Shown one piece after another: positions 1,363-61,312 of a DNA stretch of 64,000 nucleotides. The stretch is taken from assembly GCF_017348835.2 (NCBI RefSeq), contig NZ_CP072315.1, one strand, 5' to 3'. Position 1 is the stretch's first letter. Every line of letters starts with the position of its first letter. The stretch comes from Escherichia coli. Lineage in GTDB: Bacteria; Pseudomonadota; Gammaproteobacteria; Enterobacterales; Enterobacteriaceae. A model generated the notes under the pieces. It was not told where the DNA came from. It worked only from the letters and a program-made list of their open reading frames with translations, and made no database searches. The translations under genes were made by a program, and so were the position numbers.

Positions 1363-1366
1363 AGAA

Positions 1367-1388: not shown

Positions 1389-1390
1389 AA

Positions 1391-5551: not shown

Positions 5552-5929
5552 ATGTCATATCTTGAATATATCAATGAAGTAAAAGTGTCCGGGATAGTTA
5601 TCAGTGCTGTGGAGAAAAAAATGACTGACCAGAGTATAGGTTTGTTAATAAAGCTCAAAAATAGGATGAAGACAGAAGTTGATGGTGAAATCACTGAGAG
5701 AGAATTTTCAGTTCAAATCAAGGTGTCGCCTGAAATGTATTCAACCTGTTTCACTGGTATAAATCAGGGTGATGAGTTGATGGTCTCCGGTTATATTGTT
5801 GTCGATACTATTATGATTGAAGGGAGAGAACATCCTCTTGACTACATGAGAGTGGTAGCAACAAGTAAGTTGGCTCACATACCTAAACCTCTAAAAGGTT
5901 TTGGACAAAGTAGCTTTAATCAGATCTGA
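5552..5929 (+). CDS. Hypothetical protein (125 aa)
   Basis: ORF with GGAG-type RBS upstream; no motif recognised. Confidence 0.45.
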   Translation: MSYLEYINEVKVSGIVISAVEKKMTDQSIGLLIKLKNRMKTEVDGEITEREFSVQIKVSPEMYSTCFTGINQGDELMVSGYIVVDTIMIEGREHPLDYMRVVATSKLAHIPKPLKGFGQSSFNQI

Positions 5930-5949
5930 CATTAAACCCACCCTAAAGG

Positions 5950-5980
5950 GGAGAAATCCCTTCATGGGATTTCTCCTTTT
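5950..5980 (+). terminator. Intergenic hairpin + U-tract (terminator/attenuator-like)
   Basis: GGAGAAATCCC-ttcat-GGGATTTCTCC then TTTT, immediately followed by GGAG and the ATG at 5990. Confidence 0.55.
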
Positions 5981-5989
5981 GGAGTCCCC

Positions 5990-6967
5990 ATGAAACAAAA
6001 ATTTAGGGCTACTGCAATAAGTAGTAATCAACTTAGTTTTTTTTCTATACTCGATATAGATGAAGATGAAATAACGCAAATAGTTGATTCACCCAAAGAG
6101 CATTTAAATGATGCTTACACGTCCGGATTAAACTTTAAATCAGAAGAAAGTAACATTTCTGAGATAAATTATGATTCTGAAAGGCGTGAAAATCACCTTT
6201 ATGAAAAATCCAAATTACTTAAAAATCAGATTTTGCATACAATTAATTTTGCAGCAGAAACAGATTATCTATATACGGTTGAAGAATATAACCCAGATTT
6301 GGGTGGTCTGGTAATAGAATGGACCCCTGAGGATGTGTATGTTGTTTTTCTATCCGCTATGGAAGAGTCTTTGGAAATCATTAAAGAACTAGTGTTGAGG
6401 AGAAAGTTATTCTTCAAAGATGACAATGGTAATATCACAGTGAATCCACTTTTAGAAGCTGAAACACGGTGGTATATGTCAAAATCATTTGAATACACTT
6501 GTTTATGTCATGGACTTGATGCATGTGAATTTAGAGCGGAATTAAAATCATGGCTCTATTATCATTCGCATCGTTCGATTAGTGAAAACACGAAATTAGC
6601 TGAATGCAGGAATGATGATGAAATCATTTTGCATGATTGCAATGACGATATGGGCTGGGACATCTTCTTTGATCAGGATTATTTAATGTCAGAAAAAAAA
6701 CTGGCTGTTAAATGGACTGACAGGGAAATTATGGATGTTTACATAAAAGCTTTTAAATCCACATTAGAGTTGTTTGACGAGCTTGTTTCATGTGATCTGT
6801 TAACTAAACGAAACGCTTTTGGCAAGTTAGAAATCAATCCAATATTCGAAAATCATTTTGAATGGATCATGTCTGAAGCTTTTGAAATAGTGGGAAATCA
6901 TCTTGGTTATAATGTGCCTCAAATCAGGAAACTGATGGCAACTATTTGCCAAATGAATCTCAAATAA
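5990..6967 (+). CDS. Hypothetical protein (325 aa)
   Basis: Long AT-rich ORF with RBS; no motif recognised. Confidence 0.5.
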   Translation: MKQKFRATAISSNQLSFFSILDIDEDEITQIVDSPKEHLNDAYTSGLNFKSEESNISEINYDSERRENHLYEKSKLLKNQILHTINFAAETDYLYTVEEYNPDLGGLVIEWTPEDVYVVFLSAMEESLEIIKELVLRRKLFFKDDNGNITVNPLLEAETRWYMSKSFEYTCLCHGLDACEFRAELKSWLYYHSHRSISENTKLAECRNDDEIILHDCNDDMGWDIFFDQDYLMSEKKLAVKWTDREIMDVYIKAFKSTLELFDELVSCDLLTKRNAFGKLEINPIFENHFEWIMSEAFEIVGNHLGYNVPQIRKLMATICQMNLK

Positions 6968-7024
6968 AATGCCACTGGCAAACATCTGCCAGAGGGCGGT
7001 GTTTGCATTTTACCGGAGTTAAAA

Positions 7025-8083
7025 ATGTCTAATGCCGCTATGAAGTTAAATGAAACATCTTCTGATGCTTATGAAAAATTAGAAGCTCTTCTTTCCCCGG
7101 ATGTTATAAAGTTAAAACATTATGTGGATAAAGGTGAGTATCTTTTAGTTCTAGCAAAGGACCTTTTTGGTATTCCAGAAATGGATCCAAAGATGGCTGT
7201 GCCTGTTTTCAAAACTAAAACCTCGTATCGAGCTCCGCTGAACAAAGACTACATACCAAATCCCCGAATACTTGAACAAGTGGTTAAACTGCTTATCAGT
7301 CCGGATATAGATTTAAGTGTGTGTCTTAAAGGTGAGTCCGGTTCTGGCAAGACTGAAATGGTAATGTACATTAGCCACATGATGAATTGGCCGCTGACAA
7401 TTAAGCAGATCAACAGCAATATTCGAGTTGATGAGCTTGAAGGTGAGCGCAGTCTTAATGGTGGTAATACAGGTTTTGTACACAGCGATTTGGTAACGGG
7501 ATTTCGTAATGGTCACCTCATTCTTCTGGATGAAGTGGACAAAATCGATCCTGATACGGCAGCAAAACTTCACATGCCCATTGAACGTAAGCCCTGGTCA
7601 CTCAGTGCTAATGGTGGTGAGGTTATAACTGCTAATGGCTACACGCGATTTATTGGTACTGCAAACACAAACATGAGTGGAGGCGCTCGCCGGTTCGTTT
7701 CTTCTCAACGTCAAGATGCAGCTTTTATAAAGCGGTTCTTGATAGTTGAAATGGAGAAGCCCGACAAAGTTGCTTTAACCAATGTGCTTACTAAACGATA
7801 TAGCTCTTTGCCTTTTCAGGTCATTGAGAAGTTCGTAAGAGTAGCGATTGCAGTAAATGACTCTGGTACAGAAGACAGTGTGATGGATATTCGTCAATTA
7901 GTAGCTTGGGTTGGCACGTCGATGACGTTAAAAACCTTTAGTCTTCTTGACACTTTCAAAATAGCTTTTGCTTCTGCTTTACCTTTACATGTGGTCGATC
8001 TTGTTCTTCAAGCTATAGATCTTTCTCTTGGCGAAGACAAGGATAAATCGCTGGAGTATTTCACAGCAAAAAAGTCGAGTTAG
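7025..8083 (+). CDS. AAA+ ATPase, MoxR/CobS-like
   Basis: Walker A GESGSGKT, Walker B HLILLDEVDK; size (~350 aa) matches CobS/MoxR-type ATPases. Confidence 0.75.
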   Translation: MSNAAMKLNETSSDAYEKLEALLSPDVIKLKHYVDKGEYLLVLAKDLFGIPEMDPKMAVPVFKTKTSYRAPLNKDYIPNPRILEQVVKLLISPDIDLSVCLKGESGSGKTEMVMYISHMMNWPLTIKQINSNIRVDELEGERSLNGGNTGFVHSDLVTGFRNGHLILLDEVDKIDPDTAAKLHMPIERKPWSLSANGGEVITANGYTRFIGTANTNMSGGARRFVSSQRQDAAFIKRFLIVEMEKPDKVALTNVLTKRYSSLPFQVIEKFVRVAIAVNDSGTEDSVMDIRQLVAWVGTSMTLKTFSLLDTFKIAFASALPLHVVDLVLQAIDLSLGEDKDKSLEYFTAKKSS

Positions 8084-8418
8084 ATGGGATTTGTTATGAA
8101 ACCTCTGATATTTGTATCTCAGAGTTATCCCATCTTGAATTTAGTGCGTTTTTAAGTACGGATGGTGCTGCTACCATTGCTATAGCAAAAAACGGAACTA
8201 ATTTTACTGGACTTATGCAACTGAATAACGACTATTCTTTATTGTTTTATCATGATGGTAAAATAAATATGGAAGGTCTGATTAAACAAATGGAATTAAA
8301 AGGTTATATGTATCAGGGAGCAATGGGCAATGATGATGTTGTTGCTGAGTTTCCCGGTATTCTTTTAATTTCACCAGAGAAGCTTTAATATCAACCCTAT
8401 CGGGAAATCTTTCCCGTT

Positions 8419-8441
8419 GGGGAGGGTTTCCCCTTTTTTTT
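8419..8441 (+). terminator. Intergenic hairpin + U-tract directly upstream of an RBS
   Basis: GGGGA-gggtt-TCCCC followed by an 8-T run, then GGAG and ATG at 8452; an additional CGGGAAA/TTTCCCG hairpin at 8401-8416. Confidence 0.5.
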
Positions 8442-8451
8442 GGAGAAACCC

Positions 8452-9579
8452 ATGACTTTAAATACTTCAATGCTTAACAAAGTATCTGCAAAACAAATCT
8501 CTGAGAATTTTGCAAAATCATATCCAGATTTACTGGAAGGTGCAGTTATAACAAAAATTGAAATAAGTGGCTGTCAAGGATCGCGTCGAACCGATAAAAT
8601 CGATTTGTCTTATGATGGAGATGATATTACGGATCAAAAAAGCGTATCTAAAAGCGAAGTACGCTGGATTGACATAAAAGCCCTTAGCTTCAAAAGTACG
8701 ATTACCAGCAGAATATCAACTCTTTGCTCACGCTTGTGCATCCGCTATAGCAATATGTGGATTTTACCAGTATCCAGTATGGAAGAGTTTCTGGAAGGGG
8801 CCCAAGAGATTGAACGAGAGTTTCAGGCAGGTATTCAAAACGTTGTAGACAATTATGAGATGCATATTGAGGCTGAAAAAAATAGAAGCCCAAGAATGTC
8901 TTCTTTGATTGATCAGTTGAAATTAACTAAAGATGATTTCATAAAATCCTTTAGATTTAATATTGCTCACTTTATTCCTTTTACGCCTATTAGCGTTGAA
9001 GGTGATGAAACCCAGGACTACTATCAGGAACAATTGATAACAGATCTGGCAGAAGAAGCAATGAAGGTTTATGAAAAAATTAGCAAAAATAACAATTTGC
9101 GCTCAAGTACTATTGACCGACTGAAGCAAATGCAAAATAAGATCATTAGCTTCATGTTTATACATAAAGAGGCGGCAGTACTTGCAGAAGCTATAAAACA
9201 CATAATGAATAATTTACCTAAAGGTGCCATTTCTGAACCTCGCGACGTTGCGGTGTTACAGCAGTGGTTTTATTTCATGAGTGATGCTTCAATGTTAAAG
9301 CGTATTATTTCAGGAGAGCAAAAGGTTACTGACTGGTTGGAATCTATTACCAGATCATTTAATCAAAGCTCACAAACAGAACCGAACGCGCTACAGAACA
9401 CAGGTATTGAAGCTATTTTAGATTCAACAAATGTGTTCCAGGTTGAACCTGTCGTAGAGAACGATATAAATAACAGCACGTTTTCAAACACTGATCCTGT
9501 AGCTGAACCTGAGAAATCAGTTTCGCAACAGGAAGACAATGTTGAAAATGGTTTTGATATCGAGCTCAAAGGCTGGTAA
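8452..9579 (+). CDS. Hypothetical protein (375 aa)
   Basis: Track ORF starts at TTG 8440; ATG at 8452 has a GGAG RBS. No motif recognised. Confidence 0.5.
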   Translation: MTLNTSMLNKVSAKQISENFAKSYPDLLEGAVITKIEISGCQGSRRTDKIDLSYDGDDITDQKSVSKSEVRWIDIKALSFKSTITSRISTLCSRLCIRYSNMWILPVSSMEEFLEGAQEIEREFQAGIQNVVDNYEMHIEAEKNRSPRMSSLIDQLKLTKDDFIKSFRFNIAHFIPFTPISVEGDETQDYYQEQLITDLAEEAMKVYEKISKNNNLRSSTIDRLKQMQNKIISFMFIHKEAAVLAEAIKHIMNNLPKGAISEPRDVAVLQQWFYFMSDASMLKRIISGEQKVTDWLESITRSFNQSSQTEPNALQNTGIEAILDSTNVFQVEPVVENDINNSTFSNTDPVAEPEKSVSQQEDNVENGFDIELKGW

Positions 9580-9599
9580 CTGTTTGCTTTATTAAAAAC

Positions 9600-9641
9600 C
9601 CCAGATGGGTACTTCACCATCTGGGTGAGTACCCCTTTTTT
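9600..9641 (+). terminator. Intergenic hairpin + U-tract
   Basis: CCCAGATGG-(8 nt)-CCATCTGGG stem, then ACCCC and TTTTTT, 16 nt before the ATG at 9657. Confidence 0.55.
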
Positions 9642-9656
9642 ATAAAGAGGTATTCT

Positions 9657-11669
9657 ATGAAATTAGATCTTAAATCATCACCGCGCCATATTAAGCGTTT
9701 ACAGAATATAGCAAAAGTCATTAGCGGCTTAGGCGATGTAAGAGTTGTAATAGACGACAATACCAAAGGACCGTATTTTGATCCTGTAAATAAAGTTTGT
9801 GTTTTACCAAACGGCGATTATAGCGATGATGACTTTGTCAGTCTGATTGAAGGTTTTACCTGTCATGAAGCTGGTCATGGTCGCTATACCGACAGCGAGG
9901 TTTACAGTGACGCCTTTAATAGTGTTCTCAAGTCATCTGAAGGGTTTACACGCTTCGATGACGGAATGAATGCAGAGTTTGAGAGCCTCGCTGAGAAACG
10001 TAAAGCTTATAGCAGGGCAAAACGTCTTACCGGGCTTATAAATCTGTTCGATGATGTACAGATGGAAGAGAAGGTTGGTAACGATTATCCGGATGCAAAG
10101 CGGCGGCTTGCAGCCACTTACGCACTGATGGTTAAAGCCGGAAGGATGACTCCTGATATATCTTCTCGTCCGGAAAATCCTGTCCTATTTATTGAGTGGT
10201 ATCTGCTTAACTCATTGCGAGTAAAAGTCCTTCAGCAGGCAGGTCACAAAGAAACACTCGATCCGTTTTTTGACTATGCCCAAAAGATACTTTCTCCAGT
10301 AATTTCTGATGTTGAGGAAATTTTTCATGATGCTCTTGGTTGTGAAAATACTCAGGGCTGTGAATCCCTTGCTCGTAAGACCCTGGCTCTTTTAGAGAGA
10401 CTGCGGGATGAGGCAAGGGAACAACAGCAGCAGACAGAGCAGGAGGAGCAGGAGGCATATGATGAATCCGAGACCGATACCGATACCGATACCGAATCAG
10501 AAGATAAATCGCTTGAGTCGACTGATAGTCGTGAGGATGATTCTGAGGACGATAGTGAAGGTCAGGCAGATACTTCCGATAACTCTGATCTTGCTCAAGA
10601 GGGATGTTCTGAGCCTTCAGAACTTGCTGAAGATAACGAGGGAAATAATGAACCCACCGGTGGCAATCCCACAGGTGATAACATTATTGAAGACGATACT
10701 GATGCGATTAACCCTTCCGAGAGTGAATCAGATGAAGCCAGTTCGACTAACGTTGAAGATGAAAGTAACTTTTCATCGGCTCAATGGGAGATACTGGCAG
10801 ATTTGTTGGATGCCTTTCTTGGCAGTGATGAGGATAGCGAAGATTATCACGATGCTTTGGCTAAAGAGATTGAAGGTATTGCATCAAAAGTATCCGATGA
10901 CGTGAAAGCCGAATTCGGTGCTTCTGAATGGGATATCCCTGATCTCCTTATCGATTTGAATGTTTACAATGAGGCTTTGTCTCTGAGTCATTCAATCGGT
11001 AGCGACTTGTCTGTTTTACAGCAGGTTAAAATGCGTGGCCGAAACAAAACTCATGAGCGTGGAATTACCTTCGATGGAAATCGATTAATTCTGTCACCAA
11101 TGGGAGTTCGTGATGTCTTCAGAGCTCAAAGCGAATCTAAAAATAGAGGGCATGTTGGCCTCGTATTAGTTCGTGATATTTCAGCGTCAATGGCTAATGA
11201 TGAAAGATATATTCATGCCATTAAGTCAGATCTTGCTTTATCGATGGCCGCTGAAAGTTTGTCAAAAATGCATGTCTCCAATATAGTCTTTCCCTTCAAG
11301 GAAAGTGAATTTGAGATTATCAAAACGTTTGATCAAAGCGTTGAGGAATCTCTATCGAAATTCACTCTTGGATGTAAGGGTTATTATACCCCTACGGGAT
11401 CGGCTTTAATGGCAGCTGTTGATCTGTTACTTGACAGCCAATTCGATAGGAAAATAATTTTTCTTATAACTGATGGTTATCCGAATAAATCGGAATTTAC
11501 TATCGGCGAAGTTATGGAAAAGGCTAAATGTAATGGAATAGAAATCGTTGGTGTTGGTATTAAGACTGATGAAATAATTGGTTTTGAAACGGACACTTTC
11601 GTAACAGTTGATGATACTTCTTTATTGTCTATTGAAGTCAGTAAGCTAGTTCATCAAATACTTTCTTAA
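9657..11669 (+). CDS. vWA-domain protein, CobT-like, with acidic linker and N-terminal HExxH motif
   Basis: C-terminal vWA with MIDAS DISAS and ITDG; central highly acidic D/E/S/T-rich segment; HEAGH at residues 70-74. Architecture resembles CobT, the usual partner of CobS-like ATPases. Confidence 0.7.
   Translation: MKLDLKSSPRHIKRLQNIAKVISGLGDVRVVIDDNTKGPYFDPVNKVCVLPNGDYSDDDFVSLIEGFTCHEAGHGRYTDSEVYSDAFNSVLKSSEGFTRFDDGMNAEFESLAEKRKAYSRAKRLTGLINLFDDVQMEEKVGNDYPDAKRRLAATYALMVKAGRMTPDISSRPENPVLFIEWYLLNSLRVKVLQQAGHKETLDPFFDYAQKILSPVISDVEEIFHDALGCENTQGCESLARKTLALLERLRDEAREQQQQTEQEEQEAYDESETDTDTDTESEDKSLESTDSREDDSEDDSEGQADTSDNSDLAQEGCSEPSELAEDNEGNNEPTGGNPTGDNIIEDDTDAINPSESESDEASSTNVEDESNFSSAQWEILADLLDAFLGSDEDSEDYHDALAKEIEGIASKVSDDVKAEFGASEWDIPDLLIDLNVYNEALSLSHSIGSDLSVLQQVKMRGRNKTHERGITFDGNRLILSPMGVRDVFRAQSESKNRGHVGLVLVRDISASMANDERYIHAIKSDLALSMAAESLSKMHVSNIVFPFKESEFEIIKTFDQSVEESLSKFTLGCKGYYTPTGSALMAAVDLLLDSQFDRKIIFLITDGYPNKSEFTIGEVMEKAKCNGIEIVGVGIKTDEIIGFETDTFVTVDDTSLLSIEVSKLVHQILS
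10473..10493 (+). repeat. In-frame hexanucleotide tandem repeat (ACCGAT) x3.5 encoding TDTDTDT
   Basis: accgataccgataccgatacc read directly in the acidic linker of the vWA gene. Confidence 0.6.
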
Positions 11670-11685
11670 TAAACTCTACCCAATC

Positions 11686-11712
11686 GGGGCAAAAGGCCCC
11701 GGTGGGTCTTTT
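11686..11712 (+). terminator. Intergenic hairpin + U-tract
   Basis: GGGGC-aaaag-GCCCC then GGTGGGTCTTTTT, downstream of the 11669 stop. Confidence 0.5.
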
Positions 11713-11740
11713 TGCTCCATGAAGGAATAAGGAGCAAAAT

Positions 11741-11962
11741 ATGACTCAGATAAAAACTTACCGTGTAGAACATGAAAAAGTCGGTGCGATGCATAAAGTC
11801 CGTATTTTCGGACGTGTTGGTGAAGTTATAAGCAATGATAGCCCTCAGGAAAGAATCTTCCGCGAAGTCACTATAGCGGAGGGTAATAGCCAGCAGGCTG
11901 CGTTACTTGTAGATAACTACATACAGTGTCTTGAGAATAATGGCTTCACGACTGAAGCATAA
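11741..11962 (+). CDS. Hypothetical small protein (73 aa)
   Basis: ORF with AAGGAG-like RBS (aataaggagcaaaatATG) and its own downstream terminator. Confidence 0.45.
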   Translation: MTQIKTYRVEHEKVGAMHKVRIFGRVGEVISNDSPQERIFREVTIAEGNSQQAALLVDNYIQCLENNGFTTEA

Positions 11963-25312: not shown

Positions 25313-25525
25313 ATGTCTGACACAAAGCAGTCTTATTTAATGAAATTCCGTAAGTGTAGTTCGTTCGAAACGCTCGAAAAAGTATTTGAAAGGTTATGTG
25401 AAAAAAACTCGGGTGTCGCCTCTCTTGAAATTTCTGGTGCTTATGATCATCGTAAAGCCGAACTGACAATGAAAAAGTTATATGACAAAGTTCCTGCGAG
25501 TGTGTGGACCTTTGTTCGCGAGTAA
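25313..25525 (+). CDS. hha: Hha/YmoA-family modulator (H-NS co-regulator)
   Basis: YLMKFRKCSSFETLEKVFE...YDHRKAELTMKKLYDKVPASVWTFVRE aligns by eye with E. coli Hha (YLMRLRRCQTIDTLERVIE...[26 protein letters not shown]). ATG at 25313 with GAAGG RBS. Confidence 0.8.
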   Translation: MSDTKQSYLMKFRKCSSFETLEKVFERLCEKNSGVASLEISGAYDHRKAELTMKKLYDKVPASVWTFVRE

Positions 25526-49968: not shown

Positions 49969-50265
49969 ATGATCAATAATGATTACCCGTTAAACACGCT
50001 CAACCAGCTGCGTCCCTTGCTCATTGGTTTTCGCAAGGCGAATGGCCTGACGCAAAAAGACCTGTCCGAAAGGTTAGGCGTCACTCAACAGACATACTCA
50101 CGTCTGGAAGCCAACCCTGCCAGTGCGAGCATTGAACGGCTATTCAAGGTGTTTTCCATCCTGGGCGTAAAAATCAGCTTCTCCTCGGCAACCACCTCTT
50201 CAGAGAGGAAGCAGACGGAAGAAATGCTTAAATCAAACTCACCTGCACGACAGGAGGATTGGTAA
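49969..50265 (+). CDS. hipB: HipB antitoxin (XRE-family HTH repressor)
   Basis: 98 aa; LIGFRKANGLTQKDLSERLGVTQQTYSRLEANP matches HipB helix-turn-helix; 4 nt upstream of hipA. Confidence 0.85.
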   Translation: MINNDYPLNTLNQLRPLLIGFRKANGLTQKDLSERLGVTQQTYSRLEANPASASIERLFKVFSILGVKISFSSATTSSERKQTEEMLKSNSPARQEDW

Positions 50266-50269
50266 CGAT

Positions 50270-51595
50270 ATGAGCCGGAAACAGCAACGTCTGGTAATTT
50301 GGATGAACGGCATCAAAGTCGGGTACTGGGAAAAAAGCAAAGGGGTAGACAGCTTAGAATACCTTCCTGAATGGGTTGCTGACGAACAGGGAAGGCCGCT
50401 GTCATTGTCCCTTCCTTTTACTCCCGGGAACCAGGTCTGGCGTGGAAATGTGGTACGTGACTATTTTGATAATTTACTGCCGGACAGCGAAGGCATACGC
50501 AGACGTCTGGCAATGCGTTACAAGGCCGATAGCCTGGAGCCTTTTGATCTGCTGACGGAGCTGGGAAAAGACTGCGTGGGCGCGATACAGCTGCTTCATG
50601 ACGGAGATGAACCCACTGATTTATATTCCGTGAAGTATCACCCGCTTACTGAATCAGAAATTGCGGCAACTTTGCGTAATACCACGGAGACATTGCTACC
50701 GGGCAGGCCAGAAGATAACGACGACTTACGTTTATCTATTGCCGGTGCTCAGGAGAAAACAGCCCTACTGTGGCATGAAGATCGGTGGTGTATGCCGGAG
50801 GGTAATACACCAACGACGCATATATTCAAGCTACCGCTCGGACTTGTGGGGAACATGAAAGCCGACATGAGCTCGTCGGTTGAAAATGAATGGCTCTGCT
50901 CGGTACTTCTCGGCCAGTACGGGCTCCCCGTGGCAAGAACGCAGATTGCTCACTTTGAAGATCAGAAAGCGCTGGTGGTAGAACGTTTTGACCGAAAATG
51001 GTCAGGAGACGGACAATGGATCATTCGTTTACCCCAGGAGGATATGTGTCAGGCCCTGGGCGTTTCGCCATTACGAAAATATCAGGCGGACGGCGGGCCA
51101 GGTATATCGGAAATTATGGAGGTTCTGAGTAATTCAGACCGTGCTGAGCGTGACAAAGCGCAGTTTTTTATGACGCAGATAATTTTCTGGATGATGGCCG
51201 CAACAGATGGCCACGCTAAAAATTTCAGTATTTCTATTGGGCCACAGGGACGTTATCACCTTACACCAAACTATGATGTGTTGTCGGCATGGCCGGTGAT
51301 CGGTCATGGGAACAATCAGATATCCTGGCAGAAGTGCAAACTGGCGATGGCCGTACGTGGCAGTAGCAACTATTACCAGATATATCGAATACAACGACGC
51401 CACTGGATCAGGCATGGTGAGATAACCGGCCTGAGTAAACAGCAGACAGAGGCGATGATAGAGGAAATCATCGCCAGAACCCCGGGTGTCATTGAACGTG
51501 TTAGCGGGCTTCTTCCGGACCAGTTCCCCCAGCAGCTTGCGGAAAGTATTTTTGATGGAATGAGGCAGCAATGCAGGCGCCTGGCTGAGAAATGA
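50270..51595 (+). CDS. hipA: HipA-family Ser/Thr kinase toxin
   Basis: 441 aa; blocks shared with E. coli HipA (PLSLSLP, FDNLLPDS, SIAGAQEKTALL, ATDGHAKNFS, RLPQEDMCQ). Confidence 0.9.
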   Translation: MSRKQQRLVIWMNGIKVGYWEKSKGVDSLEYLPEWVADEQGRPLSLSLPFTPGNQVWRGNVVRDYFDNLLPDSEGIRRRLAMRYKADSLEPFDLLTELGKDCVGAIQLLHDGDEPTDLYSVKYHPLTESEIAATLRNTTETLLPGRPEDNDDLRLSIAGAQEKTALLWHEDRWCMPEGNTPTTHIFKLPLGLVGNMKADMSSSVENEWLCSVLLGQYGLPVARTQIAHFEDQKALVVERFDRKWSGDGQWIIRLPQEDMCQALGVSPLRKYQADGGPGISEIMEVLSNSDRAERDKAQFFMTQIIFWMMAATDGHAKNFSISIGPQGRYHLTPNYDVLSAWPVIGHGNNQISWQKCKLAMAVRGSSNYYQIYRIQRRHWIRHGEITGLSKQQTEAMIEEIIARTPGVIERVSGLLPDQFPQQLAESIFDGMRQQCRRLAEK

Positions 51596-51862: not shown

Positions 51863-51963
51863 CAGCTGTCGGTCTGGGGGTGAAAACGTATTCTTCATTC
51901 AGCGAATTCCCAGGCTTCACATTAAGACTAAAGCGGCGGCCGCAGTAACGTAAGAGAAAATAA

Positions 51964-52374
51964 ATGGCTATTTTAGCAATCATTGCAGTTATCGCCCTGG
52001 GTGGGTACGCCTACGGATTTATTAAAACCCGTGAGCTGAGCGCTTTGCGTAAAGAAATGAAACTATACGTGGATCGCATGGAAGCGGCGGAGCTGGACTT
52101 ACACGCAATCAGAAGTGTAGCGGAGCACCGGTTGCACGGTGCAGGTAAACAGTTTGCCGACCTTTACAGCCGTATCGACGGTGCAACTGTGACGCTGACA
52201 CCCGAAGATCAGCTGTTACTGGCAACGATGCCATTTAATATTCAGGATGTAGAAGACATCGTAAACGAGCGCGGTCCAAAGACAATTAGCGGCCGTCCAT
52301 TCTGGGAAGTTGAGCCAGGCCCGCATGATTATGAATATGGCCCGCAATATCCGTATTTCCCAGACCAGCGCTAG
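51964..52374 (+). CDS. Hypothetical protein with N-terminal TM anchor
   Basis: MAILAIIAVIALGGYAYGFI hydrophobic N-terminus; 12 nt upstream of the HNH gene. Confidence 0.45.
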   Translation: MAILAIIAVIALGGYAYGFIKTRELSALRKEMKLYVDRMEAAELDLHAIRSVAEHRLHGAGKQFADLYSRIDGATVTLTPEDQLLLATMPFNIQDVEDIVNERGPKTISGRPFWEVEPGPHDYEYGPQYPYFPDQR

Positions 52375-52386
52375 GAAGAGATCAAG

Positions 52387-53202
52387 ATGAGAGAGCCAAG
52401 ACCACGCCATACCTTGCAGGTCATTCGTGTACCTTCTCTGGAGGTTCAGGACCTGGGGCTGACCAGCTTTGATAGCTGGCTTGACGAGCACGGGTATGAC
52501 AAAACGAATGCCAGAAATAACCGTACCATCTGGGCGAGAGAAGGCGGATGGCATCTGAAACGTTGCAGAAATCTTGAAACTGGCACGGACGATTTCTGGT
52601 TTATCGCTTTCGATGGTAAAGGCGGGAAGATTTACCCGCTGAAAACCCAAAGAGACTACCGGGCTGCATATCGTAAGCTGGAAGCAGAAGGTTATGCGCC
52701 TGCGGTCATCGAGCAAATGACCACAGGCGCAGCATATAACCTGGCCTATCCACGTTCCATCCTAAAACAAGCTGAGACGGCCACCAGCGAGCCAATTCGG
52801 AAACCTGACGTAGATATCCAGGGTGAGCACTGCGAGCGCGTAGTGACGCAACGTAGTGGCGTGGCACAGGGTAAATTCAAAGCTCTGCTCATCGAGAATT
52901 TCGCAGGCCGTTGTGCGGTAACCGGTTGGGTTAATGGAGGTGTCCTGGATGCGGCACACATTGAACATGGAACCCGGTACAATCCGTCTAATGGCATCCT
53001 GATGACTCCAACAATGCATGCGCTGTTTGATGCCGATCTTATGGGCATAGATCCGGCCACCCTGACCGTTCATTTTAAGCCAGGCATTGAGGTGGGCGAG
53101 CTGTTTGAAGGCCGTAAAATCACACCGCTGGTGTACGATCTGGACTTAGAGCGGCTGGCCGTACGCTGGGCAGAATACCAGGGCCTTGCTCAGGACCAAT
53201 GA
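52387..53202 (+). CDS. HNH-nuclease-domain protein
   Basis: C-terminal HNH-like signature GRCAVTGWVNGGVLDAAHIEHGTRYNPSNGILMTPTMHALFD; N-terminal ~150 aa unassigned. Confidence 0.6.
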   Translation: MREPRPRHTLQVIRVPSLEVQDLGLTSFDSWLDEHGYDKTNARNNRTIWAREGGWHLKRCRNLETGTDDFWFIAFDGKGGKIYPLKTQRDYRAAYRKLEAEGYAPAVIEQMTTGAAYNLAYPRSILKQAETATSEPIRKPDVDIQGEHCERVVTQRSGVAQGKFKALLIENFAGRCAVTGWVNGGVLDAAHIEHGTRYNPSNGILMTPTMHALFDADLMGIDPATLTVHFKPGIEVGELFEGRKITPLVYDLDLERLAVRWAEYQGLAQDQ

Positions 53203-53485
53203 AGGGTGACAGCCAGGTTGTGCCTAAACCTGGCAGTAAAACCTGCATGCCACAAACCTTTAAATTCTGACTCAAGAGCCTGGCACAAGATAAAAGCGAA
53301 ATGAAAAGGTTAAAACCGGTGCACCAGACCTCTTAGGTTTAATACCTGAGCCAGTATACTGGCAGTCTCAGGTAAGTGGGTATCATACACTTCAGAAATA
53401 TCCACACCGAGATAACCGCAACAGTTAAAGGGTGATGCTGCCAACTTACTGATTTAGTGTATGATGGTGTTTTTGAGGTGCTCCA

Positions 53486-53761
53486 GTGGCTTCTGTTTCT
53501 ATCAGCTGTCCCTCCTGTTCAGCTACTGACGGGGTGGTGCGTAACGGCAAAAGCACCGCCGGACATCAGCGCTATCTCTGCTCTCACTGCCGTAAAACAT
53601 GGCAACTGCAGTTCACTTACACCGCTTCTCAACCCGGTACGCACCAGAAAATCATTGATATGGCCATGAATGGCGTTGGATGCCGGGCAACCGCCCGCAT
53701 TATGGGCGTTGGCCTCAACACGATTTTCCGCCATTTAAAAAACTCAGGCCGCAGTCGGTAA
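53486..53761 (+). CDS. insA: IS1 InsA
   Basis: [42 protein letters not shown]..., canonical InsA. Confidence 0.9.
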
Positions 53762-54183
53762 CCTCGCGCATACAGCCGGGCAGTGACGTCATCGTCTGCG
53801 CGGAAATGGACGAACAGTGGGGATACGTCGGGGCTAAATCGCGCCAGCGCTGGCTGTTTTACGCGTATGACAGGCTCCGGAAGACGGTTGTTGCGCACGT
53901 ATTCGGTGAACGCACTATGGCGACGCTGGGGCGTCTTATGAGCCTGCTGTCACCCTTTGACGTGGTGATATGGATGACGGATGGCTGGCCGCTGTATGAA
54001 TCCCGCCTGAAGGGAAAGCTGCACGTAATCAGCAAGCGATATACGCAGCGAATTGAGCGGCATAACCTGAATCTGAGGCAGCACCTGGCACGGCTGGGAC
54101 GGAAGTCGCTGTCGTTCTCAAAATCGGTGGAGCTGCATGACAAAGTCATCGGGCATTATCTGAACATAAAACACTATCAATAA
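53680..54183 (+). CDS. insB: IS1 InsB reading frame (expressed as InsAB' transposase by -1 frameshift)
   Basis: Canonical InsB sequence (...[36 protein letters not shown]...). Confidence 0.9.
53737..53743 (+). other. IS1 programmed -1 ribosomal frameshift motif A6C
   Basis: AAAAAAC inside the insA/insB overlap. Confidence 0.7.
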
Positions 54184-54226
54184 GTTGGAGTCATTACCGG
54201 AGAATTGTATCATTAACAGTCTAGTT

Positions 54227-54892
54227 CTAACGACTACCACTTTTAAGTATGTATTGAGCCAGTTTTATATTCAGGCACACCATATTGCACTCTAGCTCTT
54301 TCATCATTCTTGAAGAACTCTTAATTAAGTATTCTTCAAGTGGGCCAGCATATGCCCCTGATGTCACGATCGTTAGTTGCGTAAGAGGATGAGTCAAACT
54401 CTCAATGCCCTTCAGGATGTCATTCTGGACAGCAGCAATATAAACAGGCGAAGCCGCAATCAAATATTCATCATTCGGGCTGGACTGCATTAACTGGCTT
54501 ATAGTTGCGCAACGGTTATGCTTACCTAGTGATTTTGTGATGGCTTTCCACCAGAGATCATGCCTGAATGGTACTTGATGAAATGTCGCCTCGTAAGAGG
54601 GCACCCGATCTCGACTATTTAAAAACCCCATCCCGGCAGAGATTATCCACAACTCCAGATTTCTGGTTGAGTTTAAAATTTCCTTTGCCGTAGACCAGTG
54701 ATTACCTGAATACAAGGACAATGCCGGTACCGCCTGATTACTTCTGGCGTCGTCTACAATGTTACTCCAGGCATATGCTGCGTCGTCCGGGGTTTGTTTT
54801 GGATCTATGTCCAATGTCGGCCAGACGTGGCCCTGATGATTCTTGCCCTTTGTACAGGAAGTGATTAAGTGTACTGAGCGTTCAGAGAACAT
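54227..54892 (-). CDS. Hypothetical protein (221 aa)
   Basis: ORF only; no motif recognised. Confidence 0.45.
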   Translation of the reverse strand: MFSERSVHLITSCTKGKNHQGHVWPTLDIDPKQTPDDAAYAWSNIVDDARSNQAVPALSLYSGNHWSTAKEILNSTRNLELWIISAGMGFLNSRDRVPSYEATFHQVPFRHDLWWKAITKSLGKHNRCATISQLMQSSPNDEYLIAASPVYIAAVQNDILKGIESLTHPLTQLTIVTSGAYAGPLEEYLIKSSSRMMKELECNMVCLNIKLAQYILKSGSR

Positions 54893-54949
54893 TATCTTCC
54901 TTACATACCCATAGAACAGCTTTCTAAGAACGGTGGGCTCGCCTGAAAA

Positions 54950-55330
54950 TTACAAATCAGCCCCTTTCACGGCATCATTTTGATTCTTCGCGTCTGCCCC
55001 CAGTAAGATGACCGGTTTTCTGCATGACAGTGTTATTCCTAACAAACGCAACACAAAACCACGCCAGCCAGAGCAAATTTTTTCATTTGCTGCGTAAAGC
55101 CTATTGTTTTCTCTTTTAAGCTTCGCCCACTCGTTACAGAGGGTAACATCATCAAGCGCTGTTATATGCTTCGCCTCACCTTCGACGATAACGGTATGGA
55201 TACCGTATGCTGTAAATCTCATACTATTTTCCAGAACCCAGTTGCGGTATTCGTCGAGTCCACCTTCGGAACCGGTAGCTCTGCGCCACATTTCAATTTG
55301 CTTGTGTGATGGGTCAAGTGTACTTGTCAT
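54950..55330 (-). CDS. Hypothetical protein (126 aa)
   Basis: ORF only. Confidence 0.4.
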   Translation of the reverse strand: MTSTLDPSHKQIEMWRRATGSEGGLDEYRNWVLENSMRFTAYGIHTVIVEGEAKHITALDDVTLCNEWAKLKRENNRLYAANEKICSGWRGFVLRLLGITLSCRKPVILLGADAKNQNDAVKGADL

Positions 55331-55960
55331 TGAAGCCTCGTCTCAGCGATAACGCTTGAAATAGCCCGCTTTGGTCATCATGAAATTAGCCATCTGACTG
55401 GCGATTTGATTGTATCTTACTCATAGTGCCCTACCTATAGGTTAAAAAGGGGCATTTTCGCTTTATAGCGTGTTCAGCAGCATCAATCCTCCCAAGAAAG
55501 GCTGGCTTATTAAGCCGGTCCATCATTTTCTGTATATCTCTCATCAATTTTTATATCCGCCCTGGAGTGCACCGTTCAAGCACACCGATTAGGCAGATAG
55601 TCACTAGTTAACTCTTTACTAGTGACTAAATTCCATTGATATACGTGACAACGTCACGTCATGAAAGCTTATAAATGCCTATTTTTCATACAATGGGATT
55701 TAATTAGGAGTAAATCCCATAGGCTTACATAAGGATGACAATTAAAAGCGTTAAATATCAACCAGATAGAATGATTACCCCCAATTAATGGGCTCATCAC
55801 ATTATTTCACTGGCTGGGGTTATTGCTGGCATATCTGAAAGTGCTAATATGTTAGTCATTAGTAATTAGTAAAGCCTTTACTAAACGCGTTTCTACGTAA
55901 ATTCTATAGGTTTTATAGTGTCCTACCTTTGCTCAAATCAAAATGTTCTGACATACCAAA

Positions 55961-56791
55961 ATGGAGTGTAAAATGACTCAAAACCAGGGTTCTGAGCCAG
56001 TACCGGCGAGCCGGACAGGGCAGCTCATCAGCGCCCGGGATATGGCCATGCAGAAATTCGAAGAAGGGATGCGGTTAATCTCGGAAGCGTCGGAACTGTG
56101 CGGTCTCTCTCTCTTCACCAGCAGAATTATGCAGCCCAACGCATTTGGTCTTCCGTCGTCACTGGATCGCACCATCGAGGAGGGGCGTAAGGAAATTGAC
56201 CGTAAAACGTGGAAAAGGCTCTTTGAAGAAACAGGTATGGACCGGTACTGGAACCATAAGCAAAAAGAAGCCTTTAACGAATCCCTTCGTACGGATCCGC
56301 CCGTCGCTTCCCTGGAGATTGTTAAGGGAACATTACAGCATGCACTGGCTAACAGACGAGACACCCTTGCAGAAGGTTTCGTTGATGTTCTCAACAAGCT
56401 TGACCGAAGTTTCAAAAGCAATGCCAGGCAATATACAATGCCAAAAAAGCTTGTTCTTCGGGGGATTTTTCCTGGTGTGAACGTGCTGAGGTACAACGGT
56501 TTCTCGCAGGACAATCACTTTTGTTTACGCGACTTTGAGAATATTGTATGCATCTGTTCTGATACTCCAACACCTGCAACCGGCGGTGGGCTGAGTATGG
56601 TCGACAGGCTGACGGCCATGAGAAATACAGAATTCACAGGCGAGGTCAGTGATGAGAATGGCTGGCGGTGTCGCCTGTTTGAGAATGGAAACGTTCATAT
56701 TTGCATCGACAGTATCTCGCTTCTGAATGCTCTGAACGATCTTATCAGCATATATTTTGCAAACCAGCTTCCGGCCGCAGGAAAAAAATGA
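55961..56791 (+). CDS. Hypothetical protein (276 aa)
   Basis: ORF whose stop overlaps the start of the next gene (ATGA); no motif recognised. Confidence 0.5.
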   Translation: MECKMTQNQGSEPVPASRTGQLISARDMAMQKFEEGMRLISEASELCGLSLFTSRIMQPNAFGLPSSLDRTIEEGRKEIDRKTWKRLFEETGMDRYWNHKQKEAFNESLRTDPPVASLEIVKGTLQHALANRRDTLAEGFVDVLNKLDRSFKSNARQYTMPKKLVLRGIFPGVNVLRYNGFSQDNHFCLRDFENIVCICSDTPTPATGGGLSMVDRLTAMRNTEFTGEVSDENGWRCRLFENGNVHICIDSISLLNALNDLISIYFANQLPAAGKK

Positions 56792-57993
56792 TGATTGAAA
56801 ATGATAAAGAAAAAAGCCTGAACGATGCTACCCCGCCAGAGGTGCAGAATGACATCCGCAGCGAATCCACTGAAAAATCAAAGGAAATGGGTCGTTCAAG
56901 GTACTCATCTATCGCGATGATCGATTACTTCAATGCAATCGAACGTCTGTGCAAAGAGAAAGAAATTAACCCGGAAAATATCGATCTGAGCTTCAAAGTT
57001 CACTGGCTCAGAAACGCTGTTGGCGGCTCGTTTGCAAGGTCACAGGAGATGTTCGCGGAGTACCAGAAGTATGTTAAAGAGGTTCCTGAAGAGGCCCGTT
57101 ACCTGGATATACCCGATGAGGTAAAGGTTGCACTCGGCGATATTATCTCGTACATCACCTGGCACTACCGTAGAAGCTATACCGCAATACAGAATGATAG
57201 TGTTAAAAAAGCTGAAGCACGTAGCATGCAGCTGGAGGAGGAGGTAACGCAGCTGTTACAGCGGCTTGAGCAAAGCGCTACCGATATGGATGAGCTGAAA
57301 CTTGAGAATCAGGCACTACAGGGTCGATTAGAGATCCGGGACAGTACCGTCAAGGAGTTAGAAACAAGGCTGAATGTTGCCGAAGCAGAACTCGAAACCT
57401 GCCATCACCAGTTAGATAGCACACGGCATGAATTGAGCCTCGCACAGCAGTCAAATGACTCACTCTCCCAGCAACTGGCTGAACGTAAAACAGAGATCGC
57501 TGGTCACCTTGAATATCAAAAAAAGCTGAACGAAGAGATCAACACGCAGCGTTCTGATAACGCCGGTCTTTCCAGACAATGCGACCAGTTAAGTCAGACT
57601 GTGTCAGATACAAAGGCAGAGAGGGACAGGTTTGAACAGGAATTGATTGCTGCACAGAACCTTTGTACTGAGCTGAAAAGTGCACTGTCCGGGAAAGAGG
57701 GTGACCTGGTGGCGGTGAATGCCGAGCTTACTGAACTCCATAAACTAAACGAGTCGCTGAGCGCCGACCTGAATAAAGTAACTTTGGTCAGCCAGGGCTA
57801 TGAAGCGGAAGTGGCTGAACAAAGCAATGAACTCAAAACGCTCCAGGCCAAAGTAATGAAGCTGGAAGCTACCCTGGAGGCGGAGAAAACAATCTCAGAA
57901 TCCCTAAAAGGCACCATTGATACATTAACTGGTGCAATGGCAGGGGGAGGTACTGGAAAGTCAAAACAGCCGCGTAGCAGAAAAACATCATGA
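56788..57993 (+). CDS. Coiled-coil protein, KfrA-like (tentative)
   Basis: N-terminal globular region followed by ~250 aa of heptad-like Q/E/L-rich sequence and a basic tail (GKSKQPRSRKTS); resemblance to KfrA is architectural only. Confidence 0.4.
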   Translation: MMIENDKEKSLNDATPPEVQNDIRSESTEKSKEMGRSRYSSIAMIDYFNAIERLCKEKEINPENIDLSFKVHWLRNAVGGSFARSQEMFAEYQKYVKEVPEEARYLDIPDEVKVALGDIISYITWHYRRSYTAIQNDSVKKAEARSMQLEEEVTQLLQRLEQSATDMDELKLENQALQGRLEIRDSTVKELETRLNVAEAELETCHHQLDSTRHELSLAQQSNDSLSQQLAERKTEIAGHLEYQKKLNEEINTQRSDNAGLSRQCDQLSQTVSDTKAERDRFEQELIAAQNLCTELKSALSGKEGDLVAVNAELTELHKLNESLSADLNKVTLVSQGYEAEVAEQSNELKTLQAKVMKLEATLEAEKTISESLKGTIDTLTGAMAGGGTGKSKQPRSRKTS

Positions 57994-58056
57994 TAAATGA
58001 AGCCAGGTTGATACACTTCTCTGCATCCCCTGGCACATAAGAACTTCTGCGGACAT

Positions 58057-58260
58057 TCAGCCCGTCCGCAGGAGTTTTCGTCCTTCAGTCAACAAATGCA
58101 CTACCTTTTTTGAGTCTCCACTTTCCAGAGCAGAAAACACGTTACCGATTCTACCAACAGCTTGTATCTGAGTGATAACCCCAGTCTTGTAATCATCTAG
58201 GATCCCTGACAGGAAAGCGTTCAGTTTTGTCTGTTCGCTTAGCGAAAGCATGTAGGACAT
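58057..58260 (-). CDS. Hypothetical small protein (67 aa)
   Basis: ORF only. Confidence 0.3.
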   Translation of the reverse strand: MSYMLSLSEQTKLNAFLSGILDDYKTGVITQIQAVGRIGNVFSALESGDSKKVVHLLTEGRKLLRTG

Positions 58261-58272
58261 TTTTTCTCCATT

Positions 58273-59592
58273 TTAAGCAGGTGTGTCAGTTGAAAGAGGT
58301 TTGCGTGATTCTGGAAAATGAGGCAGCACCATAGTTTCAGATGCTGTGGTCGCATCCCAGTGCCACCATCCATAAGGCCCATATTCACGGTTGTAATAAT
58401 CTTTTTTGAGTTGCTTTCGGGCCAGATAAGCAGGAGTGGCCATACCAAATACTTCCATCGGGAACGGCTTATCGCTTTTTGTGTCGAGCAGGTAGAAGTC
58501 AGGGAACACCTCACTAATACTCGCATCATAACGCATGGGCTTAACGTACTGCCGGTGCTCTGCATCCAGCTTTTCTGCAACAACCGCCTCATAGGAGGAG
58601 TCCAGAGGTATCCAGTTCTCGCTAACGTGCATCAGCACAATTTGATGAGCTCTTACAGAAGGGCCTCTGCCGGTTACCACAGCTGGTGACGTCAACGCAA
58701 AGACAACTATTTTCGCCCCGGATTTCCATGCTGCGTACTCCGATGAAAATCGTTTCTTTACGCTATCCCAATGGACTTCTGAATTGAAAAAAATCAGCGG
58801 TAGCCCCCCAAAATTCCGCAGGGGTAAAAATTTAAGTGGCTTCTCATGCTTTTCAGCATCGTAGCGAGGTAAAACTGACAGGAGCATGAGACGTTTATCA
58901 CTCATCGCCTGTGATGAAAGACGCTGAATTTGCGACTGAGCGACAGGTTGTTTCGGGTCAGGTACACCAATGAATAAATGGTCACCTATGCAGGCTCTGC
59001 CGGTACGAATTTGTTTAGCGGTTTCAAGCAGACGATACCGTACCAGTGAATCGTTACGTTTCCCTGCCATTTTCGGGTACCAGACATTCAGACCAGACTC
59101 TGTCCACAAAAGACTAAGCAAGCCCAGGAGGGTCATTGAGGCCTGACCTCCTTCTGGTCGCTGAACATGGGGCAGGGGAGGCACTTCTGATTTTTCAGGA
59201 GGATCTTTCTCTGTCATACCGATACCGAGCCTTACAGCCATATCACCTTCGGTTGTAATCCGGACCACACCACTCGCATATCCTTTCAGGCCGGTATGCC
59301 GGGCATCAAGGGAGAAGAATACACAGGAAGGATCATGCTCAATGCCCGTGTTAGCGGCTTTGACGAGAATAAAGGCATCACCGTTCGGTAAAGCACGAAC
59401 ATAAAGTCGCTTTTCTCCTTTTCCACGACATCCGCAGGTGATGACTGATTTTTGACCTGAGGTGTGGTGTGCCTTTTTAAGAGCCGACTGCCACCCTTTA
59501 GCAAACTCATCCTGCGTTTGAAAGTCAGGTGAATACCTTTTGACGTTTGGATCGTCGTCGTAAGCAATCATCACTGCGAATTTTTGGCTCAT
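58273..59592 (-). CDS. Hypothetical protein (439 aa), downstream of dcm on the same strand
   Basis: Large ORF with good start context; no catalytic motif recognised. Confidence 0.5.
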   Translation of the reverse strand: MSQKFAVMIAYDDDPNVKRYSPDFQTQDEFAKGWQSALKKAHHTSGQKSVITCGCRGKGEKRLYVRALPNGDAFILVKAANTGIEHDPSCVFFSLDARHTGLKGYASGVVRITTEGDMAVRLGIGMTEKDPPEKSEVPPLPHVQRPEGGQASMTLLGLLSLLWTESGLNVWYPKMAGKRNDSLVRYRLLETAKQIRTGRACIGDHLFIGVPDPKQPVAQSQIQRLSSQAMSDKRLMLLSVLPRYDAEKHEKPLKFLPLRNFGGLPLIFFNSEVHWDSVKKRFSSEYAAWKSGAKIVVFALTSPAVVTGRGPSVRAHQIVLMHVSENWIPLDSSYEAVVAEKLDAEHRQYVKPMRYDASISEVFPDFYLLDTKSDKPFPMEVFGMATPAYLARKQLKKDYYNREYGPYGWWHWDATTASETMVLPHFPESRKPLSTDTPA

Positions 59593-59614
59593 AGTAGTCT
59601 CCTAAACAGGAAGT

Positions 59615-59782
59615 TTAATATCCCAACCAGAGCAACACTTCCTGAGCGTCATACTGTTCCTTTACGCCCATGTCGCTAAAGAATTCTTCGAAATCTGTTT
59701 CGGGAACGCAATGCCTGGACAGTTCTTGTAATGCTCGTTCTTTAGATACCGTCTCACCTTCAGCTGATTCGAAATACGTCAT
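59615..59782 (-). CDS. Possible small acidic protein (55 aa) between dcm and the 439-aa gene
   Basis: Translation MTYFESAEGETVSKERALQELSRHCVPETDFEEFFSDMGVKEQYDAQEVLLWLGY; acidic; not in the track (<60 aa). Confidence 0.3.
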   Translation of the reverse strand: MTYFESAEGETVSKERALQELSRHCVPETDFEEFFSDMGVKEQYDAQEVLLWLGY

Positions 59783-59842
59783 GGTTGACCTCTGACATTA
59801 TTACAACAATCTTAAGCATTTAAATTGATGAAGGAGCTCAGG

Positions 59843-61312
59843 TCAGCTGACTTCGTCGTAAAACTGCCGCAAGCGCTGGGAGGCTGCAAATTCAATTCGT
59901 GACTTCAGCAGTTTGGCGACGGCCGCAAAGACATCAACGACCACGGAGTTCCCAAACTGTCTGTAAGCCTGTGTATTGGACACAGGGATACGGAAAACAC
60001 TTTCCCCGGGTTTATCGAAGCCCATTAGCCTGCTGCATTCACGTGGCGTTAGCATGCGTGGCCGACGGTCCATGTTGTATGTGTTATGGAAATCAGTTTC
60101 TCCCAGTTCATGAGACCAGCCCCGATCAATAAGAATTTCAGATCCGTCTTTCATATAGCGGCTTGAGAGGGTTCTGGTGACACTATTAACATTGGAAGGA
60201 TCTACTAGTCCAAAACCAAAACCATTGCCTTTTGCCGCATGTTTCTTTGCATAGTTGTATAAGTACTCCCAGAGTTTAGGGGAGAGGATGTATTTACTAT
60301 CTACGCTCGGATCCAGTAAATCTGAGAGAGAAGGGCGCTTGTCCGGATAAAAGTCTTTAATGTCTCTCAGAGTAAAACCGTCTTTCAGACGTAGGTCGCG
60401 GCGAAAACCAATAAGGACGATACGTTCACGGTGCTGGGGTCGGAAATGACGGCCATCGATGACTTTAGGATCATCCGCGCCCGTGCTTTCGCTGTTTGCG
60501 ACGTCGTAGCCAAGCTCATCGAGCGTTTTCATGATGATGTTAAAGGTATTACCCTTATCGTGACTCTTCAGATTTTTTACGTTTTCCAGAACAAAAATTG
60601 CAGGTTGTTTTGCCCGGATGATCCTGGCCACATCAAAGAAGAGCGTACCCTGAGTGTCGCACTCGAAACCGTGTTTGCGACCCATAGAGTTCTTTTTACT
60701 GACACCGGCGATGCTGAATGGCTGGCATGGAAATCCCGCAAGAAGAACATCATGATCCGGGATAGAGGCATCGATAAATTTGTATGCCTCGTCATCAGTA
60801 ACCTCGGGCCGGTTGCTAAGAGTGATGTCACGGATGTCTGAATTGAAGCGGTGCTCGTTCTCATCGCAATACCAGTTCGCCCGGTAAGTACGGCTGGAAT
60901 AAGTATTCCATTCGCTCGTGAAAAGACATTTACCACCGATGGCATCAAATCCGCTTCGCAGTCCACCTATCCCTGCAAACAGATCGATAAAGCTAAAGTG
61001 CCTGTCCTCATAATCAGCAGGTCGTGAAGGTATTAAAGTCTGTAGATAGCGTCCATCTGCGATACTCAGCTCACAATGCTCAGGTATGCATGTAACCTGA
61101 CGTTTAAGGGATGCACGGGACCAATTACTGCCATTTTCATCATTTAATACCTGAGCCAGATATTTCAGGTCATAAATGGTCGAAGCTGTTAACAAAGTTT
61201 TGTGGATCAGAGATGGTGTTTTATCCACATCATTCAGGTCTGTCTCAAGATCATGAGTGTAACGTTTCATCCAAACTCTCTCAGGAATAATATCTTTGAG
61301 ATAGATTAACAC
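59843..61312 (-). CDS. dcm: DNA cytosine-5 methyltransferase, Dcm orthologue
   Basis: Motif [11 protein letters not shown], motif [10 protein letters not shown], motif VI ENVKNL; long stretches near-identical to E. coli Dcm (recalled) including C-terminal RLMGF...QFGNSVVV. Confidence 0.9.

Follow-up and report, generated by a model that had tools for sequence, protein, structure and literature searches.

A deletion that starts exactly at the terminus of an insertion element, has a variable far end and leaves the element itself in place is by definition a transposition-driven adjacent deletion, and adjacent deletions mediated by IS1 were reportedly described by Reif and Saedler in 1975. Inversions and cointegrates can likewise be made by IS1. 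In section 5.2.1 of a review (PMC9330008), adjacent deletion by IS1 is presented, on the basis of the work of Turlan and Chandler (1995), as having been characterised as replicative intramolecular transposition, and IS1-flanked composite resistance transposons are among the elements treated in a bioRxiv preprint (10.1101/334409). The event considered here is of a known type: it corresponds to the IS1 adjacent deletion of the textbooks, the plasmid family in which it is found has been sequenced extensively, and the arrangement is annotated in dozens of public records. Our literature search found no published description of this specific IncHI2 deletion, and returned nothing more specific than general remarks on IS1 as a border of the IncHI2 resistance region.

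The locus of interest lies in a 64-kb stretch of DNA (the window), where a complete IS1 stands between an HNH endonuclease gene (HNH1) and a gene for a DUF6884 hypothetical protein. The most likely reason why this IS1 has no target-site duplication is that, after inserting, it deleted neighbouring backbone in the lineage to which the window belongs. The probable route is an IS1 adjacent deletion by intramolecular (replicative) transposition, to which we assign a probability of about 0.7.

The window can be assigned to an IncHI2 plasmid backbone. A 4,001-bp query (window positions 51900–55900) is 100% identical to plasmid pAMSH1, which is typed as IncHI2A/MOBH, and over the first 44 kb of the window the ORF coordinates agree with the gene coordinates of this plasmid. 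Genes trhN and trhI and genes of the terZABCDE type are present inside the window, and repHI2 is found elsewhere on pAMSH1. The order of genes in the window is trhN, trhI, a Tus-like gene, an integrase gene, hha, the ter clusters, hipBA, the HNH gene, IS1, the DUF6884 gene, a DUF4942 gene, a DUF1173 gene, dcm and a thermonuclease gene. Elsewhere on pAMSH1, ~13 kb downstream of this IS1, the resistance region of the plasmid begins. Outside the window, at least five copies of an ISCR1-qnrB6-qacEdelta1-sul1 unit stand in tandem (about 219–257 kb and 1–12 kb of the pAMSH1 record), and the intI1-aac(6')-Ib-cr-arr-3-dfrA27 cassette array is duplicated; the resistance array looks amplified.

The ~4-kb region around the IS1 is found at 100% identity in 17–18 complete RefSeq E. 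coli plasmids and in about 27–31 plasmids of PLSDB. The carriers belong to Escherichia (E. coli), Salmonella and Klebsiella (including Klebsiella aerogenes), and they come from humans, cattle, sheep, chickens or chicken farms and a giant panda, and from different laboratories. Copies of insertion sequences are classic break points of assemblies, and a mis-join through a repeated IS1, in which two copies were collapsed and the DNA between them was dropped, would also bring the two flanks together; however, the occurrence of one and the same arrangement in about 27 PLSDB and 17–18 RefSeq plasmids from different laboratories, hosts and genera makes such an artefact extremely unlikely.

The element in the window is a complete IS1 of 768 bp and of the IS1B type (Table 1). 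Its left terminal repeat (IRL), GGTGATGCTGCCAACTTACTGAT, and its right terminal repeat (IRR) are both exact matches to the IS1 consensus, each is the sole match in the window, and none was expected by chance as judged from shuffled sequences. The product of insA is matched by the Pfam families Zn_ribbon_InsA (3e-21) and HTH_Tnp_IS1 (1.7e-30), and that of the insB frame (53680–54183), which overlaps insA in the −1 frame, by DDE_Tnp_IS1 (2.3e-78); the complete Pfam set for the element consists of PF03811, PF12759 and PF03400, with E-values from 3e-21 to 2.3e-78. The coding content of the IS1 is intact, and the formation of insAB' by a −1 frameshift at an A6C slippery motif is predicted. The same sequence in identical plasmids is labelled in RefSeq as an IS1B-family transposase with a programmed frameshift.

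The length of ~768 bp, the imperfect terminal inverted repeats of ~23 bp and the succession of insA (zinc ribbon and HTH) and insB' (DDE) in the −1 frame are those of the IS1 family, whereas the 9-bp direct target-site duplication that flanks members of this family is missing from the window copy. This lack is secondary and provides no argument against membership in the family, because the same element at the same site is flanked by a 9-bp duplication in another plasmid, pCFSAN061772_02. In the window, the bases outside the two IS1 ends are different 9-mers, viz. CAGTTAAAG on the left and GGAGAATTG on the right, and no direct repeats of 7–14 bp were visible when the junctions were read for other duplication lengths. 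The boundaries of the IS1 are unambiguous in the alignment to IS1-free backbone. An earlier note on this DNA had described an intact IS1 with unlike 9-bp flanks and no duplication; both observations are confirmed here by the exact 768-bp ends, the intact insA and insB frames and the absence of any misread repeat. On the two sides of the element, the stop codon of HNH1 is situated 228 bp upstream of IRL and that of the DUF6884 gene 28 bp from IRR. Farther upstream, ~1.8 kb from the IS1, a hipB-like HTH gene and a hipA toxin gene (49972–51595) form a type II toxin–antitoxin pair in which both genes are intact. Downstream of the IS1, a DUF4942 gene, a coiled-coil ORF of 430 aa, a DUF1173 gene and a DNA cytosine methyltransferase gene (55961–61312) make up an uncharacterised backbone cluster that is conserved in all inspected relatives.

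Table 1. Features at the IS1 locus, with coordinates in the 64-kb window.
Feature	Position	Strand	Evidence
Complete IS1	53431–54198	+	Exact IRL and IRR matches; Pfam InsA and DDE_Tnp_IS1; 768/768 identity to same-site copies in sibling plasmids
IRL, IS1 end with the novel (probable deletion) junction	53431–53453	+	Consensus match; backbone alignment
IRR, IS1 end retaining the original insertion junction	54176–54198	+	Consensus match; backbone alignment
insA (53486–53761) and predicted insAB' transposase, −1 frameshift at A6C (53737–53743)	53486–54183	+	ORFs; Pfam; RefSeq annotation
CAGTTAAAG, backbone adjoining IRL; probable deletion endpoint and putative 9-bp target of intramolecular transposition	53422–53430		IS1-free backbone alignment
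GGAGAATTG, surviving right copy of the original 9-bp target-site duplication	54199–54207		GGAGAATTG IS1 GGAGAATTG in pCFSAN061772_02; outer sides of the IS1 pair in pCE2050_B and probably of that in pEco_M21816_274
HNH1, HNH endonuclease gene, left neighbour, intact	52387–53202	+	Pfam HNH_2; WP_053276223.1
DUF6884 hypothetical gene (221 aa), right neighbour, intact	54227–54892	−	Pfam DUF6884 (marginal); WP_000490638.1

The state of this region without the IS1 is seen in plasmid pKL53-L, where both flanks of the window's IS1 are present, collinear and in the same orientation, and are separated by 4,454 bp (the left breakpoint falls after position 15546 and the right one before position 20001 of the extracted locus L002). 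At the left site of this plasmid, CAGTTAAAG continues into AGCTAAAAAGGACGG (also read as AGCTAAAAAGG), 25 bp upstream of the ATG of a gene for a 141-aa protein, and at the right site AAATAACA stands directly before GGAGAATTG. The interval contains six genes, which encode hypothetical proteins of 141 and 102 aa, a second HNH endonuclease (HNH2), an H-NS-family protein and hypothetical proteins of 78 and 151 aa. Among PLSDB records, 876 have the left site uninterrupted and 546 the right one. When the two flanks were joined without the IS1 and used as a probe, they were adjacent in no plasmid, and the two halves matched as separate places in relatives without the window arrangement. In NZ_MT929288.1 (36195–41697), both flanks of the window are matched with no IS1, and ~2.3 kb of DNA including ISApl1 lies between them, which is possibly another rearrangement of the interval.

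These comparisons bear upon an account of the locus as a simple insertion, according to which the IS1 inserted where it now stands without making a duplication, or with an atypical one. IS1 duplications of unusual length have reportedly been seen, which would be in keeping with this account; however, the flanks are adjacent in no IS1-free relative, being at least 4.45 kb apart, and it has next to no chance of being correct. Simple insertion is refuted by the collinear, separate flanks of pKL53-L.

The original insertion can be recognised in other IncHI2 plasmids. A probe of 900 bp, consisting of backbone, GGAGAATTG and the head of IS1, was searched against PLSDB, and eight plasmids (pCFSAN061772_02 and seven others) matched it at 100% in a single piece. 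In pCFSAN061772_02 (NZ_CP042895.1), which was read directly, the order is AACA GGAGAATTG, IS1, GGAGAATTG TATC, i.e., there is a perfect 9-bp duplication at the site of the window's right junction. The IS1 of this plasmid is identical to that of the window in 768/768 positions and has the same orientation and the same IRR junction, and the plasmid shares its HNH1 allele (WP_053276223.1) with the window type. What remains of this duplication-bearing form when all of the DNA that runs leftwards from IRL as far as CAGTTAAAG is taken away, the left duplication copy with it, is the window arrangement. Relative to pCFSAN061772_02, the window lacks positions 146–11891 of the extracted locus L010, so that the loss between its two breakpoints amounts to 11,746 bp; relative to the shorter form of the backbone it amounts to 4,463 bp. 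Between HNH2 and the H-NS-family gene of pCFSAN061772_02 (about 2500–9700 of L010) there is a block of ~7 kb with genes for a resolvase-family recombinase, an HTH regulator, two MBL-fold hydrolases and an MFS transporter; this block is absent from pKL53-L, and the backbone interval itself is hence polymorphic.

The polarity of the two junctions is indicated by their distribution. In PLSDB, 223 records contain the junction of IS1-IRR with GGAGAATTG and about 27 contain the IRL junction of the window, and the former is on this account the older, ancestral junction and the latter a derived one. The original left junction is retained in only 9 of the 223 IS1-bearing plasmids.

The sequence of events that we propose would have consisted of two steps. 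In the first, IS1 would have inserted into the IncHI2 backbone at GGAGAATTG and made a 9-bp duplication, arriving either alone or as an arm of an IS1-flanked resistance transposon with Tn21 mercury-resistance genes. In the second, the transposase would have attacked a new target close by in the same molecule, namely CAGTTAAAG (228 bp downstream of HNH1), and IRL would have been joined there. One product of this reaction would keep the replicon, the IS1 and its unchanged IRR flank, and CAGTTAAAG would be that copy of the new 9-bp target which stayed in it; the other would be a non-replicating circle with the deleted DNA (including the left copy of the duplication) and a second copy of IS1, which would be lost. 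The anatomical features of an adjacent deletion are observed at this locus: the novel junction falls at the terminal nucleotide of IRL and brings together sequences that lie apart in relatives, the IRR junction is unchanged with half of the duplication, the two flanks are collinear and keep their relative orientation, and neither the window nor pAMSH1 contains a further IS1 bearing the reciprocal half-duplications. The size of the deletion depends upon its parent and may have been 4.46 kb, 11.75 kb or larger, as the parent may have been a form with a solo IS1 or one with a resistance region at IRL. The lost genes include HNH2 and the H-NS-family gene. HNH1 and the DUF6884 gene are now neighbours because the DNA between them was lost, exactly at the IRL terminus.

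It had been suggested in the earlier note that the IS1 mediated a deletion, an inversion or the resolution of a cointegrate, and that the HNH module and the downstream genes may have been juxtaposed by its activity. The deletion is upheld by the position of the flanks in relatives, and so is the juxtaposition, in view of the DNA lost at IRL between HNH1 and the DUF6884 gene. The comparison with IS1-free relatives that the note had proposed, as in pKL53-L, and that with the duplication-bearing pCFSAN061772_02 both support the deletion. The second IS1 with matching half-duplications that it had envisaged was found neither in the 64-kb window nor across the whole of pAMSH1, for which seven tiling loci were scanned for IS1 ends, and most of the complete plasmids of the window type have an IS1 in one place only. 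The inversion and cointegrate parts of the suggestion are therefore rejected. An absent duplication would be compatible with an inversion endpoint, or with a junction left by an inter-replicon cointegrate and its resolution; however, the two flanks come from one IncHI2 backbone and have one orientation, the surrounding gene order is unchanged, and together with the lack of a second IS1 in the window and pAMSH1 this makes either of these origins very unlikely.

The site occupied by the IS1 of the window has several other arrangements in sibling plasmids. In pEco_M21816_274 (NZ_CP133924.1; L007, 7288–33417), two direct copies of IS1 surround a 24.6-kb unit at exactly the target of the window's IS1. 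The unit contains a Tn21 mer module, tni, mph(B), IS1326, an integron, sul1, ISCR1, blaCTX-M-2 and a truncated aadA, and the matches at its outer IS1 junctions are consistent with GGAGAATTG on each side. In pCE2050_B (NZ_CP073623.1; L009, 3451–4994), two identical IS1 copies are in tandem with the 8 bp CCCCGGAC between them and an outer 9-bp duplication of GGAGAATTG. As CCCCGGAC corresponds to the 8 bp with which the interior of the IS1-Tn21-IS1 composite begins next to its left IS1 (in pEco_M21816_274 and pM172-1.2), the IRL of the right IS1 in pCE2050_B has deleted almost the whole interior, and the tandem pair is the remnant of a near-complete adjacent deletion. The IRL of the same IS1 adjoins a fragment of the Tn3 family in p1585m1_A and the interior of IS26 in pHS13-1-IncHI2. 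In pM172-1.2, the IRL of the composite's left IS1 adjoins backbone between the genes for the 141-aa and 102-aa proteins, with an endpoint ~1 kb from that of the window, and this arrangement is another leftward deletion. Lastly, in NZ_CP117034.1 (L005, 3668–4435), NZ_OY754830.1 and NZ_CP122769.1, both IS1 junctions are unlike those of the window, the hns-containing stretch is replaced and there is no duplication. The junctions in NZ_CP117034.1 are CAGCCTTCC followed by G on the left and GGCAGCATC on the right, its IS1 differs from that of the window only by C8A in IRL, and in this type the stretch of backbone was replaced independently, in association with IS1. The IRL-side junctions of the siblings represent several deletions, each of which begins at the IRL of an IS1, and the window is one of several products of IS1 at this locus.

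The siblings also have a bearing on a different route to the arrangement seen in the window. A second IS1 could have inserted in the same orientation at CAGTTAAAG with a duplication of its own, and RecA-dependent homologous recombination between the two direct IS1 copies could then have excised the intervening DNA and left one hybrid IS1 with a half-duplication from each. The product of this route would be exactly the one observed, and direct pairs of IS1 do exist at the locus in pEco_M21816_274 and pCE2050_B. Among ten IS1 copies that were compared, all are identical except for one SNP in one plasmid (eight same-site copies in siblings have 768/768 identity), so that a hybrid IS1 would leave no trace and polymorphism is uninformative. 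As the products of the one-step and the two-step route are identical, sequence alone cannot separate them. The two-step route, however, calls for two events instead of one, and the intermediate that it needs, an IS1 at CAGTTAAAG with the backbone continuing beyond it (the junction of IS1-IRR with CAGTTAAAGAGCT), was found in none of the 72,556 plasmids of PLSDB and in none of the 20,395 records of complete E. coli genomes. Some apparent full-coverage matches to an IS1 insertion at the left site were rejected, each consisting of two non-contiguous pieces of other arrangements (those of pM172-1.2 and NZ_CP117034.1). The varied IRL-side endpoints in the siblings are better accounted for by repeated one-step deletions. 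Parsimony and the absence of the intermediate junction from the databases are the only grounds on which recombination between two copies is disfavoured, and it is a possible, though unlikely, origin of the locus. Joining driven by the transposase, rather than recombination between two IS1 copies, is most likely the step by which the deletion was formed.

The deletion explains the adjacency of the HNH and DUF6884 genes in this sub-lineage of IncHI2 plasmids, and the junction of IS1-IRL with CAGTTAAAG provides a clean marker for the lineage, to which about 27 publicly available plasmids of Escherichia, Salmonella and Klebsiella belong. Beyond such bookkeeping, the loss of genes is the one consequence of biological relevance. 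No H-NS-family gene is annotated anywhere on pAMSH1, and hha (Hha/YmoA family) is kept (window positions 25313–25525). H-NS and Hha are mentioned as implicated in the thermoregulated conjugation of IncHI plasmids in PMC6764697, which cites Forns et al. (2005) in this regard. As the H-NS-family gene has been lost, hha has been kept and both have been implicated in this process, the regulation of transfer or the fitness cost could differ in the lineage of the window type. At least four independent IRL-side junctions (those of the window, pM172-1.2, NZ_CP117034 and p1585m1_A types) lack the H-NS-family gene. It is conceivable, though in our view unlikely, that the IS1 site acts as a recurrent deletion engine that removes the plasmid's H-NS-family gene and keeps its Hha partner. 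If true, this could reflect selection in epidemic IncHI2 lineages against the plasmid's own H-NS paralogue, or a preference of IS1 for this AT-rich region of the H-NS type, and not neutral clonal inheritance.

Of the arrangements to which that of the window can be compared, the solo IS1 of pCFSAN061772_02 and seven other IncHI2 plasmids is like it in the 768-bp element, its orientation, the IRR junction and the allele of HNH1; unlike the window, these plasmids have kept the left copy of GGAGAATTG and 11.7 kb of DNA with the hns-family, HNH2, MFS/MBL-fold and resolvase genes. The unit in pEco_M21816_274 presumably resembles the IS1-flanked composites of the Tn9/Tn2670 type (the r-determinant of R100). 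In pEco_M21816_274, IS1 copies in direct orientation surround Tn21 mer and integron sequences, whereas at this site the window contains one IS1 only and lacks resistance genes. The adjacent deletions that IS26 mediates in multiresistance plasmids share with the window the retention of the insertion sequence with one half-duplication, the loss of neighbouring DNA and the setting in the remodelling of resistance plasmids, although IS26 belongs to another family (IS6/IS26) and makes an 8-bp duplication. With the IS1-mediated adjacent deletions the window shares the start at an IS1 terminus, the retained IS1 and other flank, a distal endpoint at a new target and the lack of a duplication. Its anatomy is no different from theirs; the difference is that they were obtained by laboratory selection, whereas the deletion in the window is a natural event, fixed in a plasmid lineage, of which the replicative step is putative.
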